A stretch of DNA of 64,000 bases. It comes from Ostreococcus lucimarinus. Its lineage: Eukaryota. Below, piece after piece: positions 1,203 to 51,256 of the stretch. The first letter of the stretch is position 1. Each line of letters starts with the position of its first letter. Position numbers and translations under genes: made by a program. Location of the stretch: assembly GCA_000092065.1 (NCBI GenBank), contig CP000585.1. The stretch is one strand, 5' to 3'. The notes below the pieces were generated by a model. That model worked only from the letters and a program-made list of their open reading frames with translations. It did no database searches and was not told where the DNA came from.

Positions 1203-4200
1203 CTAAACCTCGTGCGAGTCTTGTGGAGGCCGCGGCGCGAACGGAGGAGGCGGGCCTCGGCTTCCTGGCGGCGGGCCTCGGCCTGGTGGTCCTCGGCCTC
1301 TTCCTCGGCCGGGCGGCGGTCCTCGACCTGGATATCCTCTACCAGGCGGAGGGCCTCGTCCGCGTCCACCGCTCATGTTCGGCGCGAGTGCATTTGACAT
1401 CGGTGGTGCGCTTGGTGGCGCCGAAAGTTGAGGCGGCGCGGCTGCCGGAGGCGCCCGTTGCCATTGCGGAACGATGGGCTTGTTCGTCGCTGGATTTCCC
1501 ATCATGACGAACGGTGCATTTGTCGCGGCAGCTTCACTATCAGGAGTATCATTCGCCATCTCTTCCATGGACTGGCCGCCATGATCCGTCAAACTCATCG
1601 ATCGCGGAATACCATTCGTCACGCCAGACTGGTGCGTTCCAAACGGTTCACCCGCGTGCGGCACTTGCGTAGGGAGGTCAGCCATGTGCGGCGGCGGATT
1701 ACTCATCGAAGCGTATGGATTACCGAAGGTAGGCGCGTACTGTGACACACCGTTAGCTCGGGGCGACTCGACCGGGGAGGGGATCCCGGTCGGCCCCGCG
1801 CCCATCGGCGGCGCCATCATGACTGGCGGCGCCAACGCGTTGCCCGTGTTGTAATGCGTCGCGGCATCCGCGTGCTGCAACGGTGGGACATCTCGGCGTC
1901 GCGGCGAGTCGGGTTGGTTTGGGTGTGACAAAGGAGCCGCAGAGCGCGGTGGTGGACCCTTCCATTTGCCTTGTGTTCCCGAATTCTTTGCGCCGCCACC
2001 CAGAAGTACGCTCACGACGCGCATCAAAATAAGCGTCAACACGATGGGCGGCCCGAAAATCGTTGCGTTGACGCCGAAAGTGATCAAATCTTTGTTGGAA
2101 GCGAGAGCGGTACCCATGATGGAGTCTACCTTCACTGCAACCGACGTGAACGTCTCGTCACACAGCTCCATGAACGAAAGCAACTTGTTTCCGTGCTTGG
2201 TTTTCCACGCTTGATGAAGAATGCCTTCCATGACACGAGTCACGAAATTGATGATGAACATGACAAAGGGAGAGACAAACGTCCAAGCTCGACCAAAGCT
2301 CGATCTTATCATGTCGAATCCAGACGGATTACCCCGTGTATCGTAAAACTGAGACGACTTAGACTCTTGCTCGTGTGTAATTTTCGCGTCTTCCTCATTC
2401 CAGTCCAAATCCTGTATCAATCCTGTATCAATCATTTGCTCATCGATGGACGAGTCCGTGGCGGCGGTTTCGTCCATAGAACCTTCGGGAACTGATATTT
2501 CGTCATCCGCGACTTCTTTCGTTTCTTCGACGGTCACTGGCTCTTCGATTTGTGGCTGTTCGCCCAGCTCCTCAGTGACTTGTTCTTCGTCATTTGATGT
2601 ATCGAAGACGCTCTCGTCTGTTGTCGTGTCCATGACGGGCGTATCATCGACCTTTGTATCGACTTCTACTTCGTCCGTGGTAGGATCTTCGACAACTGCT
2701 GTTGACTCGGCGTCTGACGACGTCTGTTCGGTCGACTCGACGTTCATAGCCTTCTCGTGTTGAAGCGAATCTTCTTCACTCGGTGCGGCGGTGCTCGCGC
2801 TTTCTTCACACTTTGGACACGTCTCCGGTTCAGGGCACTCTATAGGTTTCGGACATTTCTTTTCTCGGAGCTGGCGTTCCTCGTCCAACGTCTCTTTGGT
2901 TGCTTCGGTCAACTCTGTCTGCTCACGTAAAAGTCTCTTGGTCTCGCCGTGCTGTCGATCGATTTCGTCGCATCGATCTTTTTGCTCGTCGAGCTTGACT
3001 TCAGCGTCGAACGTGCGTTGACGAAGAGCATCGGCTTGTTTTTGCAGATTACTGCGAAGCTTTGCGCTCTGCGCCAAGCACGTATCCGTGCAATCACATT
3101 CGTTTTCAGTCGAAGCTTCTGTCGCCGCGAGTGCAAGTACTTTCTCGTTGTACTGAGTGAGCAAAGCGTCCAAATCAGCTTGCACTTTCTCATGTTGCTC
3201 CTTCATGGTGCGCAGTTTTGACTGACACTTGCCCAACTCATCGACAGCCTCTTTGCTCGATTCAACCTTCCCTTGAAGAGATTCTACCTGCTTCGTCGCC
3301 GCCGCGAGTTCCTCCGACAACTTCTCGATTTCTTCCTGCGCCAAGAGCAATTCTTCGCTCTGTTTGTCGTAGGCCTCCTTTGTCGTAACGGATCGAACTA
3401 ATTTGTCGTACTCGTCTCGTAAAAGGTCGTAATCTTCGCGCAGAGAGCTCTTGGTCTTTTCGGCTTCCGCGAGACTACGCGACATGTCAGCGGCAGACGC
3501 TACACCTGGAGGACACGCACTCGTATCGCGCAACGACTCGAGCTCTGCCGTGAGCTCATCGATGCGCGCCTGTGCGCTCATGTGCTCTTCCGAAACACCG
3601 CGAGCATCTCCAAGTTCACCCTCGAGCTCGGCCAACCTCGAAACAAGCGCTTGCTCGTCTTCGCCTCTTCGCGAAAAATCCTCTTCGAGCGCGTTAATCT
3701 TCTGTTTGAGTTCTTCGTTCTCGCTGATGATTTGCGCATTACTCGCGATTTGTTTTTCAAGATCGACCATAACGCGCCGATCATCAATCTCCGCCTCGTC
3801 GTGTGCGACCTTGCGTGCCATGAACTCTTCCAACTCGCGCTTCAAATCGTCACCATTTTTTTTCATCGCGCGCATCGCTTTGCTTGTCTTCAACAGCGTC
3901 GCTGAAACAGCCTCAACCGTCTCTCCCGCGGATGCGTCCACACTCACCGGAATCTTGTTCGCGGCCATCCACTCCCGAAGCGCGTGAAGCGACTCGTCCG
4001 CACTCAGTCCGACGGGCACATCAATCTTCTGCGCGGCTTTTTGCTTCGCACGCGGCGGTTCCGACATCACCGGCTCTGGCTCCATCACCGGCTCTGGCTC
4101 CATCACCGGCTCTGGCTCCATCTCTGGTTCGTCCTCAACCGCGGGCTCACGTTCCGGCTCCACATCCTCCAATTCAACCGCACGCTCCATCGCGTGCCCT

Positions 4201-4544
4201 AATTCACCGACCTCGGGCTCCGCCTCGACTCGCGTCTCGCGCCCCGCCGACGCCTCCCCCCCCCCGTCCTCGTCCTCTTCCTCCCATCCCTCCGGCTGAT
4301 CCCACTGCGACACCTTATCGATCCCATCGTACCAATACGCCCGCTTCGTCGTCGCGTCGACGTGTTTCGTCCACCGCGCGCGCGCGTCGACGCCGTTTCC
4401 CATCGAATCCATCGACTTCAGATCGTCATCGCTCGCGAACGCCGGTCGCACCGTCGCGCACGCGCCGCAGACGACCGCGCACGCCGCGATGAGCGATGCG
4501 AATCGCGCGCGTCTCCCTCGGGCGCGATCGCGCGCGCGCGCCAT
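1203..4544 (-). CDS. Large secretory or membrane protein. It has a signal peptide from the Met at 4544, a WW-like domain (RAYWYDGIDKVSQWDQPEGW), EPEPVM repeats and a long coiled coil. A Cys-rich CPxC segment follows, then hydrophobic TM-like segments and a Pro/Arg/Gly-rich (RGG/PGR) C-terminal tail. It may be two merged genes.
   Basis: This is the 1155-aa ORF 1203..4670. The internal Met at 4544 is followed by a hydrophobic signal-like stretch (FASLIAACAVVCGACATV). Coiled-coil heptad composition runs across ~3000-3900. I found no recognisable catalytic domain. Confidence 0.45.
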   Translation of the reverse strand: MARARDRARGRRARFASLIAACAVVCGACATVRPAFASDDDLKSMDSMGNGVDARARWTKHVDATTKRAYWYDGIDKVSQWDQPEGWEEEDEDGGGEASAGRETRVEAEPEVGELGHAMERAVELEDVEPEREPAVEDEPEMEPEPVMEPEPVMEPEPVMSEPPRAKQKAAQKIDVPVGLSADESLHALREWMAANKIPVSVDASAGETVEAVSATLLKTSKAMRAMKKNGDDLKRELEEFMARKVAHDEAEIDDRRVMVDLEKQIASNAQIISENEELKQKINALEEDFSRRGEDEQALVSRLAELEGELGDARGVSEEHMSAQARIDELTAELESLRDTSACPPGVASAADMSRSLAEAEKTKSSLREDYDLLRDEYDKLVRSVTTKEAYDKQSEELLLAQEEIEKLSEELAAATKQVESLQGKVESSKEAVDELGKCQSKLRTMKEQHEKVQADLDALLTQYNEKVLALAATEASTENECDCTDTCLAQSAKLRSNLQKQADALRQRTFDAEVKLDEQKDRCDEIDRQHGETKRLLREQTELTEATKETLDEERQLREKKCPKPIECPEPETCPKCEESASTAAPSEEDSLQHEKAMNVESTEQTSSDAESTAVVEDPTTDEVEVDTKVDDTPVMDTTTDESVFDTSNDEEQVTEELGEQPQIEEPVTVEETKEVADDEISVPEGSMDETAATDSSIDEQMIDTGLIQDLDWNEEDAKITHEQESKSSQFYDTRGNPSGFDMIRSSFGRAWTFVSPFVMFIINFVTRVMEGILHQAWKTKHGNKLLSFMELCDETFTSVAVKVDSIMGTALASNKDLITFGVNATIFGPPIVLTLILMRVVSVLLGGGAKNSGTQGKWKGPPPRSAAPLSHPNQPDSPRRRDVPPLQHADAATHYNTGNALAPPVMMAPPMGAGPTGIPSPVESPRANGVSQYAPTFGNPYASMSNPPPHMADLPTQVPHAGEPFGTHQSGVTNGIPRSMSLTDHGGQSMEEMANDTPDSEAAATNAPFVMMGNPATNKPIVPQWQRAPPAAAPPQLSAPPSAPPMSNALAPNMSGGRGRGPPPGRGYPGRGPPPGRGRGRGPPGRGPPPGSRGPPPPFAPRPPQDSHEV
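4065..4127. repeat. Tandem repeat of an 18-nt unit, catcaccggctctggctc, about 3.5 copies. It encodes (EPEPVM)n on the minus strand.
   Basis: Direct reading of 4061-4130. The same repeat produces the HHRLWL and ALAPSP periodicities seen in the other reading frames. Confidence 0.8.
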
Positions 4545-4633
4545 CGTCGCGTCGTCGAGTGCGCGAGCGACGGTCGTTACGTCGAGACTTTGAGACTTCG
4601 CGCGCGCCGCACACCGCGACGCGCGCGCGCGCG
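4545..4633. promoter_or_regulatory. 89-bp bidirectional promoter between the minus-strand gene starting at 4544 and SEC11 starting at 4634
   Basis: Two well-supported start codons in head-to-head orientation. Confidence 0.4.
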
Positions 4634-5263
4634 ATGTCGAGGACGCGCGAGATGACGCGCGGTCGCGCAAACGCGCGCGACGTCGCGACGACGCGCTCGC
4701 CGGTGCGCCGCGCGCGCGATGCGGTCGTCGACGCGATCGTTTCCCTCTCGCACGGCACCGGTCGACAAACCGCGCTGCAGTGGCTCTCCTTGGCGCTCAT
4801 CGTCGCCAGCGCGCTGATGGTGTGGAAATCGCTGATGTTGTTCACGCAGAGCGAGTCGCCGGTCGTGGTCGTGCTGAGCGGGAGCATGGAGCCCGGACTG
4901 CGACGAGGCGACTTGCTGCTGCTGGATAACTCGCGCGGGCCGAGCGAGATCGGCGACGTCGTCGTCTTCAACATACGCGGACGCGACGTGCCGATCGTGC
5001 ACAGAATACTACACGTACACGCGAATTCGCCCGCTGACGTCGGTTCGCGGTTGATGCTGACGAAGGGAGATAATAATTTCGCCGACGACGGCGCGCTGTA
5101 CGCGCCGGGACAGCGATGGTTGCGACAGGACGACGTCGTCGGACGCGCGGTGGTGTTCTTGCCGCACGTCGGGCGGCTGACGATATTGATGAACGATTAC
5201 CCGTGGTTCAAGTACGGGTTAATCTCGATTTTAGGGTTTTTCGTCGTCACTGGGAAGGACTAG
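4634..5263 (+). CDS. SEC11: Signal peptidase complex catalytic subunit SEC11 (S26B)
   Basis: VVVLSGSMEPGLRRGDLLLLDN, DVPIVHRILHVH and LTKGDNNFADD are collinear with yeast/human SEC11 across its full length. The ATG at 4634 precedes the N-terminal TM helix. The upstream Arg-rich ORF extension is not credible. Confidence 0.85.
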   Translation: MSRTREMTRGRANARDVATTRSPVRRARDAVVDAIVSLSHGTGRQTALQWLSLALIVASALMVWKSLMLFTQSESPVVVVLSGSMEPGLRRGDLLLLDNSRGPSEIGDVVVFNIRGRDVPIVHRILHVHANSPADVGSRLMLTKGDNNFADDGALYAPGQRWLRQDDVVGRAVVFLPHVGRLTILMNDYPWFKYGLISILGFFVVTGKD

Positions 5264-32101: not shown

Positions 32102-35100
32102 ATGGCGCGCGCGCGACGCGGCGACGACGGCGAGCCGCGCGTCGGCGCGCTCGTGTTCGCGACGGTCGGGAGCGCGCGCGTCGGCGCGGACGACGATGAG
32201 ATCGCGCGCGCGGGACACGCGAACGCGCTGGCGGTGAGCGGAAAGTACGGATACCTGGTGCACGCGCGCGGAACGACGGCGCGCGTGCTCAGGACGAGCG
32301 AGGTGGCGCGCGAGGTTGAGGGTTGGCGCGCGAGAGAGGCGCCGGCGAGCGAACGGCGACTCGATGGTGATTGCGTCGACGCGTGCGCGCGATCGGACGG
32401 TGGAGACGTGATTGAAATCGTCAGCATGACGCCGGATGAACGCGCGTTCGCGACGTGCGATCGGCGCGGGCGCGTGGAGTTTTACGCGGCGAAGGATTCG
32501 AGCGACGGTAAGGCGAGAGGGGAAAAGTTTGGAGAGATGACGCTCGAGGCGCCGGTGCGGGCGGTGAAGTGGTGCGCGAATAGCGCGTCGTTTATCGCTT
32601 TGACGGGAGATGCGTTGATGTACGTTGAGGCGGTGGGGAAGGAGCCGAAGGAGATTGCGACGAACGTGACGTGCGTGAGCGCGCGAGCGAACGGGACGCT
32701 GGCGTGGGCGAGCGGTAACGTTATTTCAATCGCGTCGAGCGTTGATCCCGCGCAAACGGTGAAGGAAACGATCGAAATCAGTCCATTTCACGATCCCGAG
32801 GATTCGGTGGAAATTGACGGGGTGTACGTGCACAGCGCTGACAAGATTTTGTTCACCTCGAGAAGCGTCGAAGATCCCGCCGACTGCTCCTTGGCCGTGC
32901 TCAAGAAGGTCGATGGGAACTGGGTGTGCACGCGCCTCGAATCCGCATTCGACATCGATTCCGAAGTTGTTGATTTGACTGGTCCAGTACTTGATGCGAG
33001 CGCGTTCAGTCCGTGGAATGTGGTGTTCGCGACGCATCGAAAAGCTTGGGACAACCAGCTGTTGACTCTTCAAATAACGCGCGACGCGGATCCTTGCGTG
33101 CTCGAAGTCGAAGACGACAGATGCAGCGCTTCGGTGCCGATGACTGAGGACGACGAAAACAACTACGTCACGGGCTTAGGATTAGACTTGACTGGCGCGG
33201 GTGGAACCATGCTCAACCCGCAGGATAAAAGCGCGCCCGAGTTGGCGAAAGGACCAGCGATTGTTTTCAGCACCACAGATGGAAGAATTACGATTCTGAA
33301 ATGTGCGAACTTGGACACCGAGGAAGCGCGAATCGGAGCGCAGTCGATACAGACGCAGCTGACGCTACCGACGGATTCGCCGCCGGCGATGATTCAAGCA
33401 GGGTCGTCTCCAACGCTCACACCTGCAAAGCCTTCTTTCGGCTTCGGTTCGGCGCCACCGGCGACTCCAACGTTGGCTTTCACGGCCAGTTCGCCTGCCG
33501 CTACGGCGGCGAGCACGCCGGCGTTTAGCTTTAAGCCCACTGAAACGTCCGCGACACCGGTGGCTTCGACACCAACCTTTAGTTTCAAGCCGCCGGAAGC
33601 GACTGCAACGCCTCCTCCAGCGTCCACACCTGCGTTCAGCTTTAAGCCCGCCGAGGCGGCATCGACGCCGGCGTTCAGCTTTAAGCCCGCTGAGGCGGCA
33701 TCGACGCCGGCGTTCAGCTTTAAGCCCGCTGAGGCGGCATCGACGCCGGCGTTCAGCTTTAAGCCCGCTGAGGCGGCATCGACGCCACCCCCAGCTTCGA
33801 CGTCGGCGTTCAGCTTTAAGCCGCCAGAACCAGCGAAGACGCCACTTGCGTCGTCAACGCCAGCGTTCAGCTTCAAGTCGCCCGAACCTTTGGCTTTTCC
33901 GACCGCGTCTCCTGCGTCCGCGCCGGCGTTCAGCTTTAAGTCGCCCGAGCCAGCCAAACCACCGGTGTCTCCGACGCCAGTGGTGTCTCAGCCGACGTCT
34001 TCTCCCAAGCCTATCGAAACGGTAAAACCAATCGAGAGCGTGAGTTTACAGTCTGTCGCTCCGACGCCACCGCGAACGACACCACCGCCGAAACCGGCGA
34101 CGCAGTCCGCGGCCGCACCGCAATCGCCAGTCGAGAAAGGCATGGAACTTCTCAAGCGGTTGAGCATCGGGGAAATCGACGTAGACACGGCACAGCTCGA
34201 GCTTAAAGGATTGATTTTGGATAGCACACCGACAAAGAGCACAAAAAAAGACTGGAGCGTATCTATGGCTAAGTTTACGCCGATCGATACCACGCGTTCA
34301 CCTGGCGTAAACTTGCAAAGCTCTCCGCTTCCTTCCTGGGGCAAGAAATTAGAAGACATTAGGCGATCGAAGGAGCAAGCGAGCTCGGAGGCGGACGGCC
34401 TTAAGGCGATAGAAGACGATATGGCTTCTGTGATCGCCGAAGTAGGTGCCATGCTTGAGGATGTCACGAGCGTGACAAAATCTTTAAGCGGCGAAATCAG
34501 TGATGGTTTGATGCCAGGAAAAGCAGACATTGCCAAGATTGAACAGTCGTCGGCGTCTGCGAAGACGACCATCGAATCGTTGTTGGACGGGAGCAATCAG
34601 TTGCGCAGTCGACTCAATGAGTTGTGGGCCGCAAACGCTTCGGACGAAACATTGCGAAGCGAGCTAGAGAGCTTGATTTCGGCGGCGTGTGAAGAAATCG
34701 ATGAGAACTCAAACGTCGACGATACGCGGGAACTCAGTCCTGCATTGAAGGATGTCCAGGACAACATGCACAAAGACATGCGTACGGTGCTAGAGATGGC
34801 GGCGGATCTCGAGGCCTCAGTTGAAAGACTAGAAGCCGCCAAGAGAGAAGCCAATCGCCCTAAGCCGAAAACAATTATTCGTAGTGGATTGATAGCATCA
34901 AAGGTAGACACCTCCGCGAGTTTCACCGCGCAGATGAACGGCATTGTGAAAGCCATTAACACGCAAGCCGCGGTGATTGAGGCGCAAGCTGAAAAGTTGG
35001 ATACACTTCTGGCGCGCGTTCAAGAAGAGGACGCGCCGCGCGTATCGAAGATTAAGAGCACATTACCAAAGGAAAACACGCCGCCGATACCGGCGAAACC

Positions 35101-37513
35101 GCTGAACGTAACCGCGAAGAAAGCTGTTGAGCCCGAGCGCTCAGCGGAACCCTTGATGCTCAAAACTCCCGTGAGTAAGATAGTGGTTGCGGATGAGGGT
35201 TTGGGGGACGACTTGGAAACTGTCATCATGTCGAGAATCGCGTCGACAAGAATCACGACGGTGAAGAAAACGACTCCACCTAAACCGAAGCAAATTTCGC
35301 CGATCAAACCTGCTGCGATTGAAAAGAAACCAGCACCCCTAGCGGCGTCGCAACCGGAGTTAGCAAAACCGTCGGCACCGGCGATGAGCTTTGGCGCCGA
35401 TTTCTTGGCCAAATCTCAACAAGATTACGCCGCGGCTCAAAAGGCGTTGGATGAAGATTTGAAGAAAGCAACGACACCGACGGAGTCGAAACCGGCATTC
35501 AGTTTCGCCGCAACGCCCGCAACGAAGCCAGCCGAGACCGAGTCAAAGCCGGCGTTCACGTTCGCTCCGCCGGCGGCGAAACCGTCACCGTCTACCGAGT
35601 CTAAATCTGCATTCACGTTTGCTCCTCCATCAGCAAGCTCGAGCGCAACGGAATCGAAGTCGGCGAGTGCGGCAGCGCCGACGATGAGTTTCAGCGCTGA
35701 CTTTCTCGCCAAGGCGAACAGTGGGTATCAGAAAGCCCAAACTGCGCTTGAAGAAGAGCTCAAGGGTGAAAAAGTGGAGGAGAAGAAGTCAGAGGCAAAG
35801 TTTAGTTTCGGTATCCCTGCGAGCGCACCCACGTCGACTTCGACGTCTGCAGCGACACCGGTAAGCGGTGGATTTGGTTCGAGTGCTCCCGCGTCGAAGC
35901 CCGCTGGTGGATTTTCTTTCGGTACACCGGCGAAGGCCACGGCAGATTCAAAGTCTGAACTCGCGAGTGCGCCCGCGTTTAGCTTTGGTGCGAAGCCAGC
36001 CGAAATAAAACCGGCCGGCGACGTTAAATCAAAGGAAGTACCAGAAGAAGAATCAAAGAAGGAAGAATCAAAGGAGGCAACTACGCCCGTTGCGGCGCCA
36101 CCCATGAGTTTCAGTGCGGACTTTTTGGCCAAGGCAAACAAAGGGTATGCTGCGGCGCAAGCGGCGCTAGAGGACGACCTTGCAAAGGCGACACCCCCGC
36201 CTGGTACGCCGCCAGCGAGCGCGGCGAGTGCGTCGCCAGAGAAGCCGCTTAGCTTTACTGCCGCGACGCCGTCGCCAGCACCCAAATTCGGAATTACCGC
36301 AGCGTCGAGCTCGGCGAGCTTAGCCACGGAAGTCGCGCCTTCGAAACCTACATTTGGGTCGTCTGCGAGTTCAGCCGCGACTACAACGACTGGTATATCA
36401 TCTGGCTTTGGGAGTTTCGGTTTCGGCAGTTCTACGAATTCTGCTTCAAGTGGCGGAGCAGGCGCGTTTGGGTCTACCAGTCCAGCCGCAGCCGCGGCGT
36501 CCGCACCAGTGTTCGGTGCTTCGACCTCTACAAGCTCGCAAAGTGCGCCCGCATTCGGTGCTTCCAGTGCATTCGGTGCTGCAACCACGTCGAGCTTCGG
36601 TGCAGCGCCGGCGACGAGCGCGCCGGCGTTTGGAGCAGCGCCGGCGACGTCGGGCGGTTTTGGTAAATCTTCTGGTTTCGGTGCTGCGGCAACGACGAGT
36701 GCACCCGCATTTGGGGCACCTTCGGCATTTGGTGCCGCGACAACGACAAGTTCACCTGCATTCGGAGCACCTTCAGCGTTCGGTGCCGCGACAACGACGA
36801 GCACGCCTGCGTTTGGCGCACCCTCTGCGTTCGGTGCCGCGACAACGACTAGCGCCCCGGCTTTCGGTGCGCCTTCTGCCTTTGGTGCTGCGGCGGCGGC
36901 TTCCACGCCAACAGCATTCGGAGCTGCAGCCACAGGAGCGAGTGGCTTTGCGGCGGTGGCGAGCAGCCCATCTCCCTTCGGCGCCGCGGCAACCGCGAGT
37001 GGGGGATTCGGCGCCGCCGCGACGCAAGCGACGACTGGCTTCGGTGCGGCGGCGGCGCAAAACTCCAACGGATTCGGTGGTTTCGGTCAATCTACGGGAG
37101 GTTTCGGTGCGGCGGCGACGCAAGCGACGACTGGTTTCGGTGCGGCGGCGACGCAAGCGACGACTGGTTTCGGTGCGGCGGCGACGCAAGCGACGACTGG
37201 TTTCGGTGCGGCGGCGGCACAAAGCTCGAGTGGCTTTGGCGGTGGGTTCGGCCAGCCCACGGCGTCGAGTGGCTTTGGCCAGCCCGCGGCGTCGAGTGGC
37301 TTTGGCCAGCCCGCGGCGTCGAGTGGCTTTGGCCAGCCAGCGTCTCCCGGCTTCGGCGCGGCCGCTCAAACTTCCGCCTTCGGCGGCGGATTTGGTCAAC
37401 CTGCATCGGCCGGCGGTTTCGGCCAGCCATCATCTCCGAGCGGGTTCGGACAACCGCAACAACAATCCGGTTTCGGCGCTCAAAATCCAGCGTTCACTCA
37501 AATGCGACGTTAA
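32102..37513 (+). CDS. NUP214: FG-repeat nucleoporin, Nup214/Nup159-like: an N-terminal beta-propeller-like region, a central coiled coil and a C-terminal FG/GFG/FSF repeat region. 1803 aa.
   Basis: There are more than 40 FG-type motifs (PAFSFKP, SFGA, FGAxxxT, GFGQP, FGAAATQATTG). A coiled-coil segment spans ~34300-35050. The FG nucleoporin-type domain order (propeller - coil - FG) is clear. Confidence 0.8.
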   Translation: MARARRGDDGEPRVGALVFATVGSARVGADDDEIARAGHANALAVSGKYGYLVHARGTTARVLRTSEVAREVEGWRAREAPASERRLDGDCVDACARSDGGDVIEIVSMTPDERAFATCDRRGRVEFYAAKDSSDGKARGEKFGEMTLEAPVRAVKWCANSASFIALTGDALMYVEAVGKEPKEIATNVTCVSARANGTLAWASGNVISIASSVDPAQTVKETIEISPFHDPEDSVEIDGVYVHSADKILFTSRSVEDPADCSLAVLKKVDGNWVCTRLESAFDIDSEVVDLTGPVLDASAFSPWNVVFATHRKAWDNQLLTLQITRDADPCVLEVEDDRCSASVPMTEDDENNYVTGLGLDLTGAGGTMLNPQDKSAPELAKGPAIVFSTTDGRITILKCANLDTEEARIGAQSIQTQLTLPTDSPPAMIQAGSSPTLTPAKPSFGFGSAPPATPTLAFTASSPAATAASTPAFSFKPTETSATPVASTPTFSFKPPEATATPPPASTPAFSFKPAEAASTPAFSFKPAEAASTPAFSFKPAEAASTPAFSFKPAEAASTPPPASTSAFSFKPPEPAKTPLASSTPAFSFKSPEPLAFPTASPASAPAFSFKSPEPAKPPVSPTPVVSQPTSSPKPIETVKPIESVSLQSVAPTPPRTTPPPKPATQSAAAPQSPVEKGMELLKRLSIGEIDVDTAQLELKGLILDSTPTKSTKKDWSVSMAKFTPIDTTRSPGVNLQSSPLPSWGKKLEDIRRSKEQASSEADGLKAIEDDMASVIAEVGAMLEDVTSVTKSLSGEISDGLMPGKADIAKIEQSSASAKTTIESLLDGSNQLRSRLNELWAANASDETLRSELESLISAACEEIDENSNVDDTRELSPALKDVQDNMHKDMRTVLEMAADLEASVERLEAAKREANRPKPKTIIRSGLIASKVDTSASFTAQMNGIVKAINTQAAVIEAQAEKLDTLLARVQEEDAPRVSKIKSTLPKENTPPIPAKPLNVTAKKAVEPERSAEPLMLKTPVSKIVVADEGLGDDLETVIMSRIASTRITTVKKTTPPKPKQISPIKPAAIEKKPAPLAASQPELAKPSAPAMSFGADFLAKSQQDYAAAQKALDEDLKKATTPTESKPAFSFAATPATKPAETESKPAFTFAPPAAKPSPSTESKSAFTFAPPSASSSATESKSASAAAPTMSFSADFLAKANSGYQKAQTALEEELKGEKVEEKKSEAKFSFGIPASAPTSTSTSAATPVSGGFGSSAPASKPAGGFSFGTPAKATADSKSELASAPAFSFGAKPAEIKPAGDVKSKEVPEEESKKEESKEATTPVAAPPMSFSADFLAKANKGYAAAQAALEDDLAKATPPPGTPPASAASASPEKPLSFTAATPSPAPKFGITAASSSASLATEVAPSKPTFGSSASSAATTTTGISSGFGSFGFGSSTNSASSGGAGAFGSTSPAAAAASAPVFGASTSTSSQSAPAFGASSAFGAATTSSFGAAPATSAPAFGAAPATSGGFGKSSGFGAAATTSAPAFGAPSAFGAATTTSSPAFGAPSAFGAATTTSTPAFGAPSAFGAATTTSAPAFGAPSAFGAAAAASTPTAFGAAATGASGFAAVASSPSPFGAAATASGGFGAAATQATTGFGAAAAQNSNGFGGFGQSTGGFGAAATQATTGFGAAATQATTGFGAAATQATTGFGAAAAQSSSGFGGGFGQPTASSGFGQPAASSGFGQPAASSGFGQPASPGFGAAAQTSAFGGGFGQPASAGGFGQPSSPSGFGQPQQQSGFGAQNPAFTQMRR
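33632..33790 (+). repeat. Perfect tandem repeat of a 39-nt unit, gcgttcagctttaagcccgctgaggcggcatcgacgccg, ~4 copies. It encodes (PAFSFKPAEAAST)4 in the nucleoporin.
   Basis: Direct reading; copies 2-4 are identical at the nucleotide level. Confidence 0.85.
37102..37220 (+). repeat. Tandem repeat of a 33-nt unit, tttcggtgcggcggcgacgcaagcgacgactgg, 3 perfect copies plus a diverged one. It encodes (FGAAATQATTG)n.
   Basis: Direct reading of 37081-37230. Confidence 0.85.
37244..37345 (+). repeat. Tandem repeat of a 27-nt unit, ggctttggccagcccgcggcgtcgagt, ~3.7 copies. It encodes (GFGQPAASS)n.
   Basis: Direct reading of 37241-37350. Confidence 0.8.
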
Positions 37514-44001: not shown

Positions 44002-46521
44002 ATGGGGAGCCGTGGCAAGCGAATCGTCGAGATAGGTCCCGATGGAACGAGCGAAGGGAGCGAGGACGAGGCGTTCTGGGCGGAGCAGCCCGCGCACACG
44101 GCGAATCGAGCAGAGCGGAGGGCGGACGCCATGCGCGTGCTGGACGTGCAGTCGAACGATGACGCGAGCGCGGTGGCGCAAGCGTATCGAAAGTTAGCGC
44201 TGAGACATCATCCCGATAAACACCGAGGGGATCCGGACGCGGAACGGAAGTTTCGAGAGATCGTCAGAGCGTACGACACGCTGACGAGGGAGTACGGACT
44301 GTCGGGCGAAGCCGCAGCGACGGGATCGATGCAAGATAACTTTGCGAGCGCGGCAGACATGCGTGATTTTGCCGCGAGCTTTTTTGAGAGCTTTTTCTTC
44401 GGTGGAGGGTCGTTCGCGGGTGGTCGAGGCGGGGGCGGCGGTCGACGAGGGGAGTATGACGACGCGAGCAGTCGCGACTACGACGACGACAGCGAGGGCG
44501 ACTCTCTTCCTAGCTTGGATGACTACGACGACGACGACTACACCGACGACGAAGAGTATACGGATTTACACAACTTCTTCGGGAGCGATCCACCGCCAGG
44601 GTGGGCTTCGCGAGGGGCACCCGGCAAGTGGTTTGGACGTCCGGGGAGTAGTCAAGGGAGCGGGGGACGACCGTCCATGACGGATGATCAACTCTTTGAG
44701 CACTTGGAACAAATGCGTAAAGAAGCTGCGCGATACGCTGCGGAGCTGGCGAAGCAAGAGAACGAGGCTCGACGAGCGAATGAACCTCTGGAGAAGCTTC
44801 AACGCCCGACGCTGGTTTCGCGCACGGATGACTCCATTACGCTCAACTTGTACCGCACAAAATCTACCACGCAAACCTTACCGCAAGACAGGTGCTGGGA
44901 GCTTAGCTTAAAGAAAGAAAAGGAGCACAATTACACGGTGTTCACATCCGTCAAAGGCAAGACTGTAATTACGGTGGACGATTTATTACCGGGAACAAAG
45001 TACTGCTTCAAGGCTAGGGTAGGACGCGTAGACGAGTCCACCGGCGAGGTCACAGAATGGGGCCCGCATAGCGTAGAAAGTATGTACGTGACGTCTGGTC
45101 GAGCGCCGGTAGGAAATAGTGGGAAACAATCCGTCAGAGCAGAACACGAAGAAGTGGTGACTGAAGCCGGTATGGGGAAAAAGGCAAAAAAGCGCGCCGC
45201 GAAAGAGCAGGCCGAAAAGGAAGAGCGTGAGCGTCTTGCTGCTGCGGAGAAGGAAGGCAACACCACTGCAGCAGCAGTCGCAGATGAAGCTGCGGCTCGT
45301 CAGGCTGCGCTGCGTAAAGCTGCGGAGGAGGCCGCTGAGCGGGAGATGGCAGAGATGGAGGCTATTCGCAAGCGTGTCGAAGCATCGAAGAAACCGGACG
45401 TCAAAGCGGCAGCTTCTGCGGGTGAAGGTATCTCCAAGAAAGCAGCGCAGCGGAAAAAGAAGAAGGAACGCGCAAAGGCGGAGGAGTTAGCGAAAGAAGT
45501 CGAATCTAGTATGGGGTCAATGCCGACGGAGACGGATGAAGAGCTTGCCAGACGTTTGCAAGCCGAGGAGGATCGTTCTTCGATGTTAGGAAACAAGCAC
45601 ATGAGTGCACCTAAACCACCAGTACCGTCGGGACCCCCGCCGTCTTGGGCGGCAGCTCCTGCGATGCGAATGCCAGTGAAGAAACCTGAGCCAGTAGCGG
45701 TGCGTGGGCCACCCTCGGGCGTGCCTCTTCCGCCGCAGTCGGCGCCTCCGCTAGGTCAGAGTAGAATCCCCACACCACGAGCTGGTGAAGAAGGACACGC
45801 CCCTCCCCCTCTTCCACCAGGTCCTCGACCTCCGGCGTCGTATGGTGCGGCTGCTCCTGCGCCGCCTCCTCGGCATCGAGGTTCTCCGCCGCAAACCGGC
45901 GCTTGGGGCGTCGCGCAAAGCTCTGGAATTAGCTCCGCGAGCACCTGGGGCGAGACGAGGCCTGCAGTAGCGCCAGTGGTTGCGCCATCGCCGCAGCACG
46001 CTACGCCACCGCACCAGGCGCCGAGTCAACCCGCTTCTTGGAGTCCGGCGAACAGCAACTGGCAACCCATGGGCGCCGGCATGGGCGCTTTGCCCGTCGG
46101 CGATGTATTCGCAACGGACACGCAGCAAATGCCTCCACCATCCGCTGGTCTCTTCGTTGGCGGCTTGGAACAAAATTGGAATCCATCTGTGGCGCCCGCC
46201 GCGCACTGGGGCGGTCAATCATCGTGGAACGGAGGCAGCGGCGCTCCACCGCCGGCTCAAGGCGCGAGCGGCGCCGACTGGGGCCTGGGAGGTTTAGGCG
46301 TTAATGCCGATCTAAATGCTGGCACTCCGAGCTGGAGTGCGTTCGCCGGTACATCCCCCACCGCCGGGCCTGGTGTGTGGTCTACCCCGAACGATCTCTC
46401 CGTCGACGTCGGTCGCATGAACCTCGACGCCAGGCAGCAACAAGCCGCTCAGCGCAGTCCCGGCACCCCCGACGGCGACCCCAATCTCATCGATTCCAGT
46501 TTATTGAGTTTTCTAGGCTAG
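44002..46521 (+). CDS. DnaJ (J-domain) protein with an internal fibronectin type III-like domain and a Lys/Glu-rich then Pro-rich C-terminal half
   Basis: The J domain is SNDDASAVAQAYRKLALRHHPDKHRGDPDAERKFREIVRAYDTLT, with the HPD motif. The FN3-like beta-sandwich is YRTKSTTQTLPQDRCWELSLKKEKEHNYTVFTSVKGKTVITVDDLLPGTKYCFKARVGRVDESTGEVTEWGPHS. ATG at 44002. Confidence 0.8.
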   Translation: MGSRGKRIVEIGPDGTSEGSEDEAFWAEQPAHTANRAERRADAMRVLDVQSNDDASAVAQAYRKLALRHHPDKHRGDPDAERKFREIVRAYDTLTREYGLSGEAAATGSMQDNFASAADMRDFAASFFESFFFGGGSFAGGRGGGGGRRGEYDDASSRDYDDDSEGDSLPSLDDYDDDDYTDDEEYTDLHNFFGSDPPPGWASRGAPGKWFGRPGSSQGSGGRPSMTDDQLFEHLEQMRKEAARYAAELAKQENEARRANEPLEKLQRPTLVSRTDDSITLNLYRTKSTTQTLPQDRCWELSLKKEKEHNYTVFTSVKGKTVITVDDLLPGTKYCFKARVGRVDESTGEVTEWGPHSVESMYVTSGRAPVGNSGKQSVRAEHEEVVTEAGMGKKAKKRAAKEQAEKEERERLAAAEKEGNTTAAAVADEAAARQAALRKAAEEAAEREMAEMEAIRKRVEASKKPDVKAAASAGEGISKKAAQRKKKKERAKAEELAKEVESSMGSMPTETDEELARRLQAEEDRSSMLGNKHMSAPKPPVPSGPPPSWAAAPAMRMPVKKPEPVAVRGPPSGVPLPPQSAPPLGQSRIPTPRAGEEGHAPPPLPPGPRPPASYGAAAPAPPPRHRGSPPQTGAWGVAQSSGISSASTWGETRPAVAPVVAPSPQHATPPHQAPSQPASWSPANSNWQPMGAGMGALPVGDVFATDTQQMPPPSAGLFVGGLEQNWNPSVAPAAHWGGQSSWNGGSGAPPPAQGASGADWGLGGLGVNADLNAGTPSWSAFAGTSPTAGPGVWSTPNDLSVDVGRMNLDARQQQAAQRSPGTPDGDPNLIDSSLLSFLG

Positions 46522-46771: not shown

Positions 46772-49700
46772 ATGACGCTGCGCTTTCGTCGTCCGCGCGT
46801 CGGCAAAGTTTGGGAACACGGCGCCGCGGTGGACGTCGTCGTCGAGCGCGCGGATGATTTCGATCGCGATCGCGCGCGCGAGTGTGAGATCTCGCTCGTC
46901 GGTCAAGGGGCGTGGATGCGAAGCTCGAAACACGCGACGCTTGGGAAGATTTCATTCCGCGAAGGCGAAGGCGAAGGCGAACGCGAGCTCGACGAAGGGA
47001 AACTGACGTGGCGCGTGCCGGAAGACGTGCCGAGCGGAGAGTACGAACTGAAGGCGAGCGTGCCGAACTCACGACCGGCGATCGAGACGACGACGCGGAT
47101 CGTGATCTCTGAAAGGATGAAGGCGCGACGGACGAGCGCGGGGACGTGCGAGGCGACGTGGGACGCGCGCGCGATTCCCGGAGATTACACGGCGGAAGAT
47201 GGATGGAAACTGGCGATTGATATCACGCCCGTGATTGAAGAAGGAGAGGATGTCAACGCAGTGGTGTCTCACGCGTTTATACTCGCCGCAGAGAGTGGAT
47301 TGAAGACGCACACGAAGGATGGGACGCGCATCTTGTGCGACATCTCAGAGGCTGAGCGAGAGAGTCGGCGCAAAACGTTGCGATTGCTTCCCAACCGCGC
47401 TTGTGATATCGCGCTTTGCGCTTTTGGGGACGAGTCAGATGCCATGGCGGATTACGTCACGTTGAGAGTTAGGGTGGACATGTCGCAGACGATGATGGAA
47501 GTGTGCGCGAGTGGGCATCCGTCGCAGACGATTTCGTCGCGGAGCGTGCATTCTGCAGACGGCTACTACTCCAGAAGTCCACCGATTAAATCGATAGAAA
47601 AGAAACCGGACGGCGAAGAGCTAAAAGATGTTACGAACATTGACGATAGGGAAGCGGTGCTGAAGGATGACTTGAGCTTGGGTCGCTGGGCCGCAGAGGA
47701 GAGCACCGACGGGTGGCGACAGGAGCCTGGTTTGAATGTTCTCGTCGTGCGCGCAGACGACTTCCAGCCAATCTATGAGTGTACATGGGACACCAGCGGT
47801 GGTGCGCGTCGCGCGAAAGAAATTGAGACGCAGTTACAGTCATTCATGAAGTCATTCTTTGACGGCGGCGCCGTCGACGTGGCTCGAAAAAGCGTGCCAG
47901 AACATTTTCTTTGCATCACCACCTGTGGTCAATGGAGCGGAGGGACGGCTAAAATTAGCGAAAAAATTTCAAAAGCGTTGCAACTCGTTCTCGTTGGAAT
48001 CCTAGGCTCGGACAAGGGCGACGATGGCGTGAGCGCGCGCATTCACAAAGCATTGGCAGTTCCAGACAAGCCTCTTGCCATCGCCGCTGTGTCTTATGGG
48101 AGCGCTCGAGACGAAGTGCACACGTGGGTTGACGTGAGCGAACCGAAAGGCAAAGCGATCATCAAAACGTCGTTGAGCAATTCCAACGGTGCGTGGTACC
48201 CTACGTTGATCCAGCGCGGCGAAGGCGAGCACGCGTCTGATTGGTACATTCCTTGGAGAAATTACGCGCGCGAAGGGTGGAGCGTATTAAGTGAAGACGC
48301 GCGAGTTCAACGATACTCACAACTGATAGGCGATATACGACACATGGTTTTCGATGCCGAAAGTGGTTCTCGAGTGAGCGTGTACAATTTGGTACGTGCA
48401 CTCGTCAAATACGCCTCACGGCGTAGTGGCGATAAATCGTTGGTACCGACGGTGGACATGCTTCTCGTTGAAATTATTCTTTCGCGTGGAGCGCTGGCGG
48501 TTGTCGAGTGCGTCAATGCTGGTGCGGTTGAGTATGTCGTTGATAGAGTGCTTTCGTGCGTGCGCGAAGATGCCACCCACGACAAGTTGGAGGTGCTAGA
48601 TAAGGCGTACATCAAATCGCTTCTCAAATTGCTCACCGTGGACGATTTTGCGATGTATGCGGAAGGCATTCGCAGAGGCGCCGCGGATGCTGCATTGCGC
48701 GTGATTCATGCGTTTTGGAACGGGAGTTCCACATTCTTTGATAGTAACTCGCGCGAGATGCTCTCACAGCTAGCGGAGCACATGGCGCTCACAGATTTAG
48801 CCACTGTGCGCATGGTTGCCAAAGACGAACACTCAATGACTGCTTTTACCGCCATTCGGTCGAGTTTAACTTGTGCGGCGCCTTACTCAGGAGAGATCTC
48901 TGGCAAAGTCCACATTCTAGACATCTTGCCAGCGAACGAACAAGACGGACTGATTGAGTTGCCGACATCGCCGAGGACAAATGATGACGTCTCACCAGTA
49001 ATGACGCCGGCGCAGAAAATATTGCAGGCGTACGACGAAATTTGGGAAGGCGGCGAGTCACCGGATAAAGATGGTGATAAGGAGTGGACAATGGTAGAAA
49101 CCGGCGCCGATCAAGTGAATCAACCTGACAACGCAGCGTCAAGCTCGCTTCAAATAGAGGAACCCGTCATGCACACCCCAGAACCGATCAAACGAACAAT
49201 GTCCGGACAGATCGAGTCAGCGCCTGAGCAACCTCTCGACGGTATAGTCATTCTTTGTGCAAAAGGCGGCGACTGGAACACGCATATTTCGATGATTCGA
49301 CAAGCTCCCAGACTCATGTGGCGCGCTCGTGAACGCGGCGCTCGCGCTGTCATTTTTACGTGGCCTCGACGCGGGTTGGCGTGTGTACCGGTTCAGCCGT
49401 TGTTATCGAGTCCAAACTTCGACAACGTGACGAACATTCCAAGCTTCGTCATGTGCGCGGAGTCACTGACACGGTTGCTTCAGTTTTCCGATGACTGCAC
49501 TCTAAAAATTGAGATCCCTCCGAATGGTCTGGTTGGCACCGCTGAAGCGCTCGCAAAGCGAATCGGGAACCAGCTCATGGCGGCGTGCGCAGATCGACCA
49601 CCGCCCATGACGCCGTCTGTTACACCGCCAATCGCCGGTCGTTTTCGCGGCCGATTTAAGCACACTGATGCGCAGACTCTTCTTCCACGTGAAGACGTCT

Positions 49701-51256
49701 CTTCACCGCGAACGCCTTCGGCGTCCACAGGAGAAGGCTTTGCTGCGGCTTTGATTCGCAGAGTCACGTTTACGCAGTCCGGTGAAAGCAAAGAAGAACC
49801 GAAGGATGAAGAAACCTACGTGCGCGATGCCGAGAAGGATGAACGTGACTTCGAATCGCTTCGCCATCTCAGTGAAAAAGTGGCGGCGCCCCCGATGGAC
49901 GAAAACTCGCATCTCGACGCTTGGCGGAGCGCAAATTTAGAAGGCGGCGTGTCGCGATGGACGCGTGCCATGCGACTCGTGAACGCGCTGGGGGATCACG
50001 GAGTGCCATTCATGAAAGGCGCGTATCCGGATAACACCGGTGCAGATGATGATGGACCGATTCGTATTCTGAGTTTGGATGGAGGCGGCATGCGTGGCAT
50101 CGGCACGCTCGTCATGTTGGAACGCATCCTAGAGGCTACGAATAGTTGGTGTGTCGGAGACTGCTTCGACCTCGTTGTAGGCACTTCCACGGGTGGTATC
50201 ATCGCTGTTGGTGCTGGTCTGCTTAGGATGACGACCGACGAGTTGCACGAGCTGTACGTCAAGATGGGCGATGAGATATTCCCTAGAAAAGCCGACTCAT
50301 CCTTGACTCACTGGTACAACCAAACGACAAAGTTCTACCACCGCGGTCGAGAAGAGGCAAGAAGTTTTGAGACTATGCTGCGCAAAGCGTTGCGAGAGGA
50401 AGCCGAAAAACCACTGTACAGTATCACGTCCCATCCACGTTGGTATTCCTCGACTTCTCCGCCGCCGCACGTCTGTCTAGTTTCACACCTCGTGAGTCGG
50501 TCACCTGCCACAACGTTTCTGATGCGTTCGTACAAACACGACGCGAGAGGCAAAAGCCATCTCGGCCACTTGCCAGGCGAACATCGTGCGAGCTTGTTGA
50601 ACTCAATTCGCGCGACGACTGCCGCGCCTTGGTTCTTGGAAGAGCTCAGGATGAAGAAAGAAATCGGGGGCGCTGGAGGTTTTGCACGAGAGCGTAAGTC
50701 TGAAGCCGATAACGCGAACTCTCGCGCGTCGCCCAACGACGTGGAAAAGAAGCAGACTACGGAAGACCATCGCCACGATCATCAAAGAGCACCGACAAAC
50801 GTCAATGCGGAGATCCGATTGATCGACGGCGCCATCGCGAGCAACAATCCCACCGCCGTCGCGGTCTTTGAAGCGCGTCGCTTGTTCTCAAAATCCCGAC
50901 CGCTCTGCGTCGTTTCTCTCGGCACCGGTGCCGCCGTTCCAAACTCTCGCGACGCGCGTCTATCCGGTTTCCCCGGTTGGCTCGACAATACCATCCACGC
51001 GTCGTGCGACGTCGCCCAAGTCGACGCCACCATCAGACACTTACTCGGCGCCGACGACGCGTATTACCGTTTCCAGCCAACCGCCGACGTCTTCAGCTGC
51101 GAGCTCAACGACGTCTCCCCCGAGACGTCGTCCAAGCTCAAGCACGCCGCCGCCGCGTACATGGACACCGTCGACGCCCAGGTTCGCGAGCTCGCCGAGA
51201 TTCTTCGCATCGCCGCCGCGCCCTCGCCATCGAACCGCCCAGACGGCGCGCGATGA
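46772..51256 (+). CDS. Large patatin-like phospholipase (iPLA2/PNPLA8-like catalytic domain at the C-terminus) with a ~1000-aa N-terminal region of unknown function
   Basis: The patatin motifs are ILSLDGGGMRGIG (oxyanion GGxR), VVGTSTGGII (GxSxG nucleophile) and IDGAIASNNPT (catalytic Asp). I recognised nothing in the N-terminal 3 kb. ATG at 46772. Confidence 0.8.
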   Translation: MTLRFRRPRVGKVWEHGAAVDVVVERADDFDRDRARECEISLVGQGAWMRSSKHATLGKISFREGEGEGERELDEGKLTWRVPEDVPSGEYELKASVPNSRPAIETTTRIVISERMKARRTSAGTCEATWDARAIPGDYTAEDGWKLAIDITPVIEEGEDVNAVVSHAFILAAESGLKTHTKDGTRILCDISEAERESRRKTLRLLPNRACDIALCAFGDESDAMADYVTLRVRVDMSQTMMEVCASGHPSQTISSRSVHSADGYYSRSPPIKSIEKKPDGEELKDVTNIDDREAVLKDDLSLGRWAAEESTDGWRQEPGLNVLVVRADDFQPIYECTWDTSGGARRAKEIETQLQSFMKSFFDGGAVDVARKSVPEHFLCITTCGQWSGGTAKISEKISKALQLVLVGILGSDKGDDGVSARIHKALAVPDKPLAIAAVSYGSARDEVHTWVDVSEPKGKAIIKTSLSNSNGAWYPTLIQRGEGEHASDWYIPWRNYAREGWSVLSEDARVQRYSQLIGDIRHMVFDAESGSRVSVYNLVRALVKYASRRSGDKSLVPTVDMLLVEIILSRGALAVVECVNAGAVEYVVDRVLSCVREDATHDKLEVLDKAYIKSLLKLLTVDDFAMYAEGIRRGAADAALRVIHAFWNGSSTFFDSNSREMLSQLAEHMALTDLATVRMVAKDEHSMTAFTAIRSSLTCAAPYSGEISGKVHILDILPANEQDGLIELPTSPRTNDDVSPVMTPAQKILQAYDEIWEGGESPDKDGDKEWTMVETGADQVNQPDNAASSSLQIEEPVMHTPEPIKRTMSGQIESAPEQPLDGIVILCAKGGDWNTHISMIRQAPRLMWRARERGARAVIFTWPRRGLACVPVQPLLSSPNFDNVTNIPSFVMCAESLTRLLQFSDDCTLKIEIPPNGLVGTAEALAKRIGNQLMAACADRPPPMTPSVTPPIAGRFRGRFKHTDAQTLLPREDVSSPRTPSASTGEGFAAALIRRVTFTQSGESKEEPKDEETYVRDAEKDERDFESLRHLSEKVAAPPMDENSHLDAWRSANLEGGVSRWTRAMRLVNALGDHGVPFMKGAYPDNTGADDDGPIRILSLDGGGMRGIGTLVMLERILEATNSWCVGDCFDLVVGTSTGGIIAVGAGLLRMTTDELHELYVKMGDEIFPRKADSSLTHWYNQTTKFYHRGREEARSFETMLRKALREEAEKPLYSITSHPRWYSSTSPPPHVCLVSHLVSRSPATTFLMRSYKHDARGKSHLGHLPGEHRASLLNSIRATTAAPWFLEELRMKKEIGGAGGFARERKSEADNANSRASPNDVEKKQTTEDHRHDHQRAPTNVNAEIRLIDGAIASNNPTAVAVFEARRLFSKSRPLCVVSLGTGAAVPNSRDARLSGFPGWLDNTIHASCDVAQVDATIRHLLGADDAYYRFQPTADVFSCELNDVSPETSSKLKHAAAAYMDTVDAQVRELAEILRIAAAPSPSNRPDGAR

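Follow-up and report, generated by a model that had tools for sequence, protein, structure and literature searches.

Three coding minisatellites in a Nup214-like nucleoporin gene of Ostreococcus lucimarinus and their probable variation in unit number among wild alleles

Tandem arrays and their variation among alleles

Here we examine a stretch of 64,000 nucleotides (nt) of contig CP000585.1 from the green picoalga Ostreococcus lucimarinus (assembly GCA_000092065.1), hereafter the window, and focus on one gene within it, which encodes a Nup214-like phenylalanine-glycine (FG) nucleoporin and carries three tandem arrays of short in-frame units, termed A1, A2 and A3 (Table 1). All three arrays are held by a single intron-less open reading frame (ORF) on the plus strand, encoding 1803 amino acids (aa) plus a stop codon, and a homologue search recovered full-length, colinear homologues of this product across all Ostreococcus clades. 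A first-pass annotation of the same DNA had placed the start of the gene at 33480; the actual start lies 1.4 kb farther upstream, at 32102, and 33480 marks the onset of the repeat-rich part.

Tandem Repeats Finder (TRF) and direct reading of the units both place the three arrays where that annotation had put them, within the one ORF and with unit lengths divisible by 3. TRF reports A1 as a 39-nt unit present 4.0 times (33632-33786, 99% matches), a 33-nt family that spans 37007-37216 and includes A2, and A3 as a 27-nt unit present 3.7 times (37242-37342, 94% matches). The arrays thus consist of head-to-tail units of 39, 33 and 27 nt that are 94-100% identical in DNA, which is a defining trait of coding minisatellites. 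Their description as nucleotide-perfect holds for A2, where three identical units (37102-37200) are followed by 16 nt of a fourth and preceded, from 37007 on, by older and diverged copies. It is slightly generous for A1, in which units 2 and 3 are identical while a synonymous C/T difference sets unit 1 apart at 33652 and the last base of unit 4 departs from the others. For A3 the figure of some 3.7 perfect copies was an overstatement, as just two full units are identical (37271-37324), the flanks match partially, and identity over the whole array is 94%. The longest perfect periodic runs nevertheless reach 95 nt in A1, 84 nt in A2 and 52 nt in A3, against a maximum of 14-15 nt when the codons of the whole gene, or those of the FG domain alone, are shuffled (n=200). 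The arrays cannot be put down to faults in the reference assembly, since independent metagenome contigs carry the same unit sequences.

Comparison with wild alleles revealed extensive differences in unit number. A homologue search yielded 17 proteins of 1729-1814 aa from marine metagenomes at 94-98% identity, one 90% cluster provided 14 further alleles, and units were counted in 33 alleles, 32 of them near-identical metagenomic alleles. A1 has four units in the window and 1-5 in the other alleles, A2 has three tandem units against 0-3, and A3 has three against 1-4, giving 17 distinct unit-number combinations that are distributed across both groups of single-nucleotide polymorphism (SNP) haplotypes. 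The expectation that copy number would vary is therefore borne out in these short-read assemblies, and the variation is sharply localised: in alignments of the window with six wild contigs, every indel falls exactly within the three arrays and consists of whole interior units gained or lost, with the marked first and last units retained in all aligned contigs. Five of the contigs (L001-L005) are free of substitutions relative to one another across an alignment of at least 5241 nt, and each lies 31 substitutions (0.58-0.59%) away from the window; despite their mutual identity, their unit numbers differ (5/2/2 for A1, 2/3/1 for A2 and 4/4/2 for A3). A further contig, L006, produced by a different assembler, is separated from the window by 13 substitutions and by precisely one unit each in A1 and A2. 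Near-identical pairs from other clades (P0020/P0023, P0031/P0033 and P0021/P0024) likewise carry lineage-specific arrays whose lengths differ several-fold. As a separate observation, four alleles (P0010, P0012, P0013 and P0014) share a 6-aa in-frame loss of PPPAST immediately after A1 (equivalent to about 33785-33805 of the window), which marks a group of 1740-aa alleles and reads as a separate slippage event at the edge of A1.

The gene also provides an internal control in the form of an older array of 51-nt units. At the protein level these units are identical at 16 of 17 residues, while at the DNA level 8-11 of the 51 nt differ, almost all of them synonymously. This array is fixed at three units in all 32 of 32 conspecific alleles and reaches five only in a lineage of 89% identity (P0018). 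Given that it is stable though repetitive in protein, instability tracks DNA identity rather than protein repetitiveness, which is the prediction of homology-dependent slippage or unequal exchange.

Gene identity and domain architecture

Fold, profile homology, architecture and automated naming together uphold the earlier designation of the product as a Nup214-like FG nucleoporin. An AlphaFold2 (AF2) model of residues 1-430, built from six Ostreococcus sequences, is all-beta, with a predicted local distance difference test (pLDDT) of 62.7 and a predicted template modelling score (pTM) of 0.67. In a Foldseek search of the PDB, its top six matches are the N-terminal domains of human Nup214 (3fmp, 2oit, 3fmo and 3fhc) and yeast Nup159 (3rrm_C and 1xip), with E-values from 1.9e-13 (3fmp_A) to 1.1e-11 and template modelling (TM) scores of 0.5-0.6, and these structures outrank generic WD40 propellers. 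An exhaustive profile search with the N-terminal alignment against 1.84 billion representatives gave 95 matches, many of which place query positions ~10-410 on positions ~16-430 of proteins 1500-1900 aa in length. They include NUP214 of Amborella (XP_020517592.1, E 7.7e-13) and a Riccia "Nup159/Nup146 N-terminal domain-containing protein" (E 1.4e-13), both of which score above the curated cut-off of PF16755 (Beta-prop_NUP159_NUP214), as well as NUP214 of Aristolochia and Impatiens, a Papaver cluster with one member of that name, and proteins without a name from the streptophyte and chlorophyte algae Chlorokybus and Bryopsis and from Diphasiastrum. A word-indexed homologue search with the same N-terminal profile returned three Ostreococcus fragments only, the plant proteins being reached by the exhaustive search. 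Domain order and total length agree with those of green-lineage proteins named NUP214 (1555-1909 aa in Amborella, Aristolochia, Impatiens and Papaver), and near-identical metagenomic alleles bear the automated JGI/IMG name "nuclear pore complex protein Nup214". The joint presence of a propeller, a coiled coil and an extended FG domain is not known from nucleoporins other than Nup214/Nup159.

From the N-terminus, the protein comprises a predicted propeller, a block of FSFK repeats, a predicted coiled coil and the FG domain. The central domain contains three or four long predicted helices (segment positions 96-129, 138-201, 211-248 and 269-307; AF2, pTM 0.18) and is highly conserved between clades, with a mean column identity of 70%; a search of PDB sequences with its profile returned no match to solved coiled coils. 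The C-terminal FG domain holds some 40 FG dipeptides and almost no charged residues, and the protein as a whole has 50 FG dipeptides and nine FSFK motifs in addition to other motifs of the phenylalanine-any residue-phenylalanine (FxF) type.

The charged segment ahead of the C-terminal FG domain contains three copies of a non-FG motif of about 30 aa, M[SG]F[SG]ADFLAKAxxGYxxAQxALE[DE][DE]L, at 35384-35473, 35684-35773 and 36104-36193 (aa 1095, 1195 and 1335). Each Ostreococcus clade has two or three copies, the last of which is always followed by ATPPPGTPP, and a related sequence, GFGAAFLAKAxxGYAxAQKALEEEL, is shared by the more distant fragments P0129, P0133 and P0157. The motif was not detected among the land-plant NUP214 profile matches. 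Its core, MSFxADFLAKAxxGYxxAQxALEEDL, could represent an undescribed, lineage-specific binding site within the FG domain, a suggestion to which we attach a low probability.

Table 1. Features of the Nup214-like gene, with positions numbered along the window
Feature	Position	Strand	Evidence
Nup214/Nup159 orthologue, O. lucimarinus CCE9901, complete ORF	32102..37513	+	ORF listing; full-length colinear homologues
N-terminal beta-propeller (predicted), aa 1-~405	32102..33316	+	AF2 model, Foldseek, plant NUP214 N-terminus profile matches
Pro/Ala/Ser/Thr-rich segment with nine FSFK (FxF-type) motifs, aa ~440-625, contains A1	33419..33976	+	Motifs, composition, unit DNA
Array A1, 39 nt x4 (AFSFKPAEAASTP), 99% identical	33632..33787	+	TRF and unit reading
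Central charged alpha-helical (predicted coiled-coil) domain, aa 670-1059	34109..35278	+	AF2 model, conservation
Charged FxF/FG segment with three non-FG motif copies, aa ~1095-1400	35384..36193	+	Motif positions, composition
C-terminal uncharged FG domain, aa 1400-1803, contains A2, A3 and the 51-nt array	36299..37510	+	Composition, FG positions
Older 51-nt/17-aa array (PAFGAPSAFGAATTTSx)	36704..36907	+	TRF, unit DNA, allele counts
Array A2, 33 nt x3 identical (GFGAAATQATT) and partial fourth	37102..37216	+	TRF and unit reading
Array A3, 27 nt x~3.7 (GFGQPAASS)	37244..37342	+	TRF and unit reading

Annotation record and neighbouring sequence

An exact-product look-up did not find the 1803-aa protein among the called genes of the searched collection, and the reference annotation may lack the gene or model it differently. 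The products of two neighbouring ORFs are identical to the CCE9901 proteins XP_001417727.1 and XP_001417989.1, which identifies the source strain of the window; an exact-product look-up of XP_001417989.1 likewise gave no record. The CCE9901 genome is, we presume, Sanger-finished, a literature search having given no usable statement on its sequencing. Three minus-strand ORFs that overlap the gene (33394-33957, 35728-37068 and 36773-37399) were rejected as by-products of GC-rich repeats, because the homology and structure evidence lies entirely on the plus strand.

Immediately upstream, a protein-kinase gene (PF00069; 30125-32030, minus strand) is divergent from the Nup214-like gene, with ~70 nt between the two starts if one adopts the kinase start codon that metagenome contigs were given; the upstream region shared by the two genes is very compact. 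Repetitive coding sequence is also found elsewhere in the window. A perfect in-frame tandem repeat (18 nt x3.2, 100% matches, 4065-4122) lies inside the minus-strand ORF 1203-4670, and two large ORFs (44002-46521 and 46772-51256) belong to clusters whose members bear the IMG label "collagen type III alpha"; member lengths in the clusters so labelled range from 796 to 1498 aa, and this may be another length-variable repetitive gene.

Discussion

Together these analyses point to an Ostreococcus Nup214 gene that harbours three coding minisatellites whose unit number varies between wild alleles through slippage or unequal exchange, a reading to which we assign a probability of roughly 0.85. Three stretches of the putatively disordered parts of the protein are encoded by minisatellites with DNA-identical units. 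Under the proposed mechanism, this identity would allow whole interior units to be inserted or deleted in frame, through slippage during replication or through unequal exchange. Such changes would outpace point substitution, leaving wild alleles that differ in unit number. The most natural reading is that the arrays expanded or contracted recently in this way.

Several features of the data weigh against this reading and have to be set beside it. All non-reference alleles derive from short-read metagenome assemblies, including several MEGAHIT k141 contigs, in which collapse of the arrays is possible, and haplotypes that agree at every aligned base and differ in unit number only, such as L001-L005, are also what assembler error would be expected to produce. 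The minimal state of two, one and two units (A1, A2 and A3) is moreover frequent among the alleles assembled by MEGAHIT, a de Bruijn graph assembler, that were obtained from ENA, and absent from JGI-sourced alleles; this difference may reflect either assembler behaviour or the sampling of different populations. One could accordingly suppose that the arrays are real, that their copy-number differences arose through collapse or mis-traversal by the assembler, and that natural populations are essentially monomorphic. We regard this as unlikely, since collapse cannot yield the five units of A1 and four of A3 that exceed the reference (four and three), and arrays of two to three units (78-117 nt) are shorter both than k=141 and than a read. 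Within a single MEGAHIT project, L002 carries non-minimal arrays of 116-142 nt alongside a two-unit A1, and the assembler therefore copes with such lengths; L006, from another assembler and with SNPs of its own, shows intermediate counts; and unit number also separates lineages that are distinguished by fixed substitutions, as in P0018 with its five units of the 51-nt array. On balance we consider it quite probable that the unit-number polymorphism is real. A different objection concerns the origin of unit identity, which might reflect continuing homogenisation of old repeats by gene conversion or concerted evolution in place of recent expansion. In keeping with this, the boundary units bear marker bases that are conserved in all alleles, the interior units are uniform, and FSFK units are present in every Ostreococcus clade. 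However, synonymous sites have changed freely both in the neighbouring FSFK units and in the 51-nt array, so that homogenisation is not general, and alleles differ through the gain or loss of whole units and not through exchange of unit sequence. The two models overlap mechanistically, as unequal exchange does both, and we regard homogenisation as unlikely.

The identity of the gene itself could also be questioned. A Pfam scan of the whole window protein gave no match, searches of PDB sequences with the N-terminal protein and with its profile returned nothing meaningful, the N-terminal model reaches no more than moderate confidence and leaves out residues 280-354, and many WD40 propellers also match that model with significant Foldseek E-values. 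A pan-eukaryote nucleoporin screen published in 2010 (PMC2951903) aligns Ostreococcus candidates for Nup88 and for Nup62 and has no Ostreococcus entry in its Nup214 alignment; it seems to have missed the Ostreococcus Nup214, which fits the divergence of the gene. Such observations might suggest some other beta-propeller/FG protein, or a low-complexity protein with no role at the pore. That the six best structural matches are without exception Nup214 or Nup159, and that the profile matches are named NUP214 proteins bearing PF16755, aligned at the same N-terminal position and of the same total length, makes this highly improbable. The combination of propeller, predicted coiled coil and long FG domain, not known from other nucleoporins, argues in the same direction.

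By homology, the protein would belong to the cytoplasmic filaments of the pore. Its predicted seven-bladed propeller would dock the mRNA-export helicase Dbp5/DDX19, and its predicted coiled coil would join Nup88 and Nup62 and so anchor it in the pore, in a trimer whose yeast counterpart is Nup159-Nup82-Nsp1. Transport receptors would bind to the FSFK and FG segments, which are expected to be disordered. The first-pass annotation had further proposed that repeat number affects the selectivity of the nuclear-pore barrier, for which we find no support. In yeast, deleting or swapping asymmetric FG domains, that of Nup159 included, caused no detectable defect in the Kap95, Kap121, Xpo1 or mRNA pathways (PMC2172579), and unit variation in the Ostreococcus gene touches about 10% of its ~60 FG/FxF motifs, in a single nucleoporin. 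The functional impact is probably small, and we infer that variation in unit number is nearly neutral. It is conceivable, and in our view quite improbable, that the arrays are hypermutable, their unit number shifting while 5 kb of flanking DNA stays unchanged, and that diversifying selection acts on them, with prasinoviruses that depend on the nucleus as one possible agent and repeat length modulating docking or import; if their hypermutability were true, the arrays would at least give O. lucimarinus populations a natural marker that resolves strains finely.

Our understanding of nuclear-pore function is unchanged by these results, and their practical value is modest. They offer a confident Nup214 assignment for Ostreococcus, where Pfam and standard domain searches miss the gene, and they point to three loci whose length assemblers may get wrong and which may serve as strain markers, sizable by the polymerase chain reaction (PCR), in an ecologically important picoalga. 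They also provide a clean within-gene illustration of the contrast between DNA-identical repeats, which are unstable, and protein-identical but synonymously diverged repeats, which are stable.

Comparison with known systems

Human NUP214/CAN and land-plant NUP214, of which Arabidopsis NUP214/LNO1 is an example, share with the Ostreococcus protein a PF16755-type propeller followed by a coiled coil, predicted in Ostreococcus, and an extended FG domain at the C-terminus, as well as a similar total length of about 1700-2100 aa; the best fold matches (3fmp, 2oit and 3fmo) belong to this group, while sequence identity between the human and Ostreococcus propellers is only 13-14%. Unlike these proteins, the Ostreococcus nucleoporin has an extra FSFK (FxF) block between propeller and coiled coil and three copies of the Mamiellales-specific MSFxADFLAK motif in its FG region. 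Saccharomyces cerevisiae Nup159, an FG nucleoporin of the cytoplasmic filaments, has the same propeller fold (3rrm_C and 1xip) and carries its FG repeats directly after the propeller, in the manner of the Ostreococcus FSFK block; its coiled coil, however, is C-terminal and is not followed by a long FG domain, as the predicted one is in Ostreococcus. A dynein-light-chain (DID) motif was not seen in the Ostreococcus protein, although no search aimed at it was made.

With regard to the arrays, one parallel is found in the coding minisatellites of yeast cell-wall genes, in which Verstrepen and colleagues, in work from 2005, are said to have measured an effect of unit number on a phenotype, adhesion. 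These resemble the Ostreococcus arrays in having DNA-identical units, each a multiple of 3 nt long, whose number changes much faster than point mutation through gains and losses driven by recombination or slippage, as proposed for Ostreococcus, and differ from them in their adhesion phenotype, no phenotype being expected for the Ostreococcus arrays. The closer parallel lies within the nuclear pore itself: repeat indels between strains have been validated by PCR and Sanger sequencing in the yeast genes NUP100 and NSP1 (PMC8759820), which like the Ostreococcus gene gain and lose in-frame repeat units inside the coding sequence of an FG nucleoporin. The yeast repeats are of the GLFG and FxFG types and those of Ostreococcus of the FSFK and GFG types, and the Ostreococcus variation is known from metagenome assemblies and not from isolates. 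Repeat-length polymorphism in FG nucleoporin genes has thus already been documented in yeast, and what is new here is its setting in a green picoalga and in Nup214.

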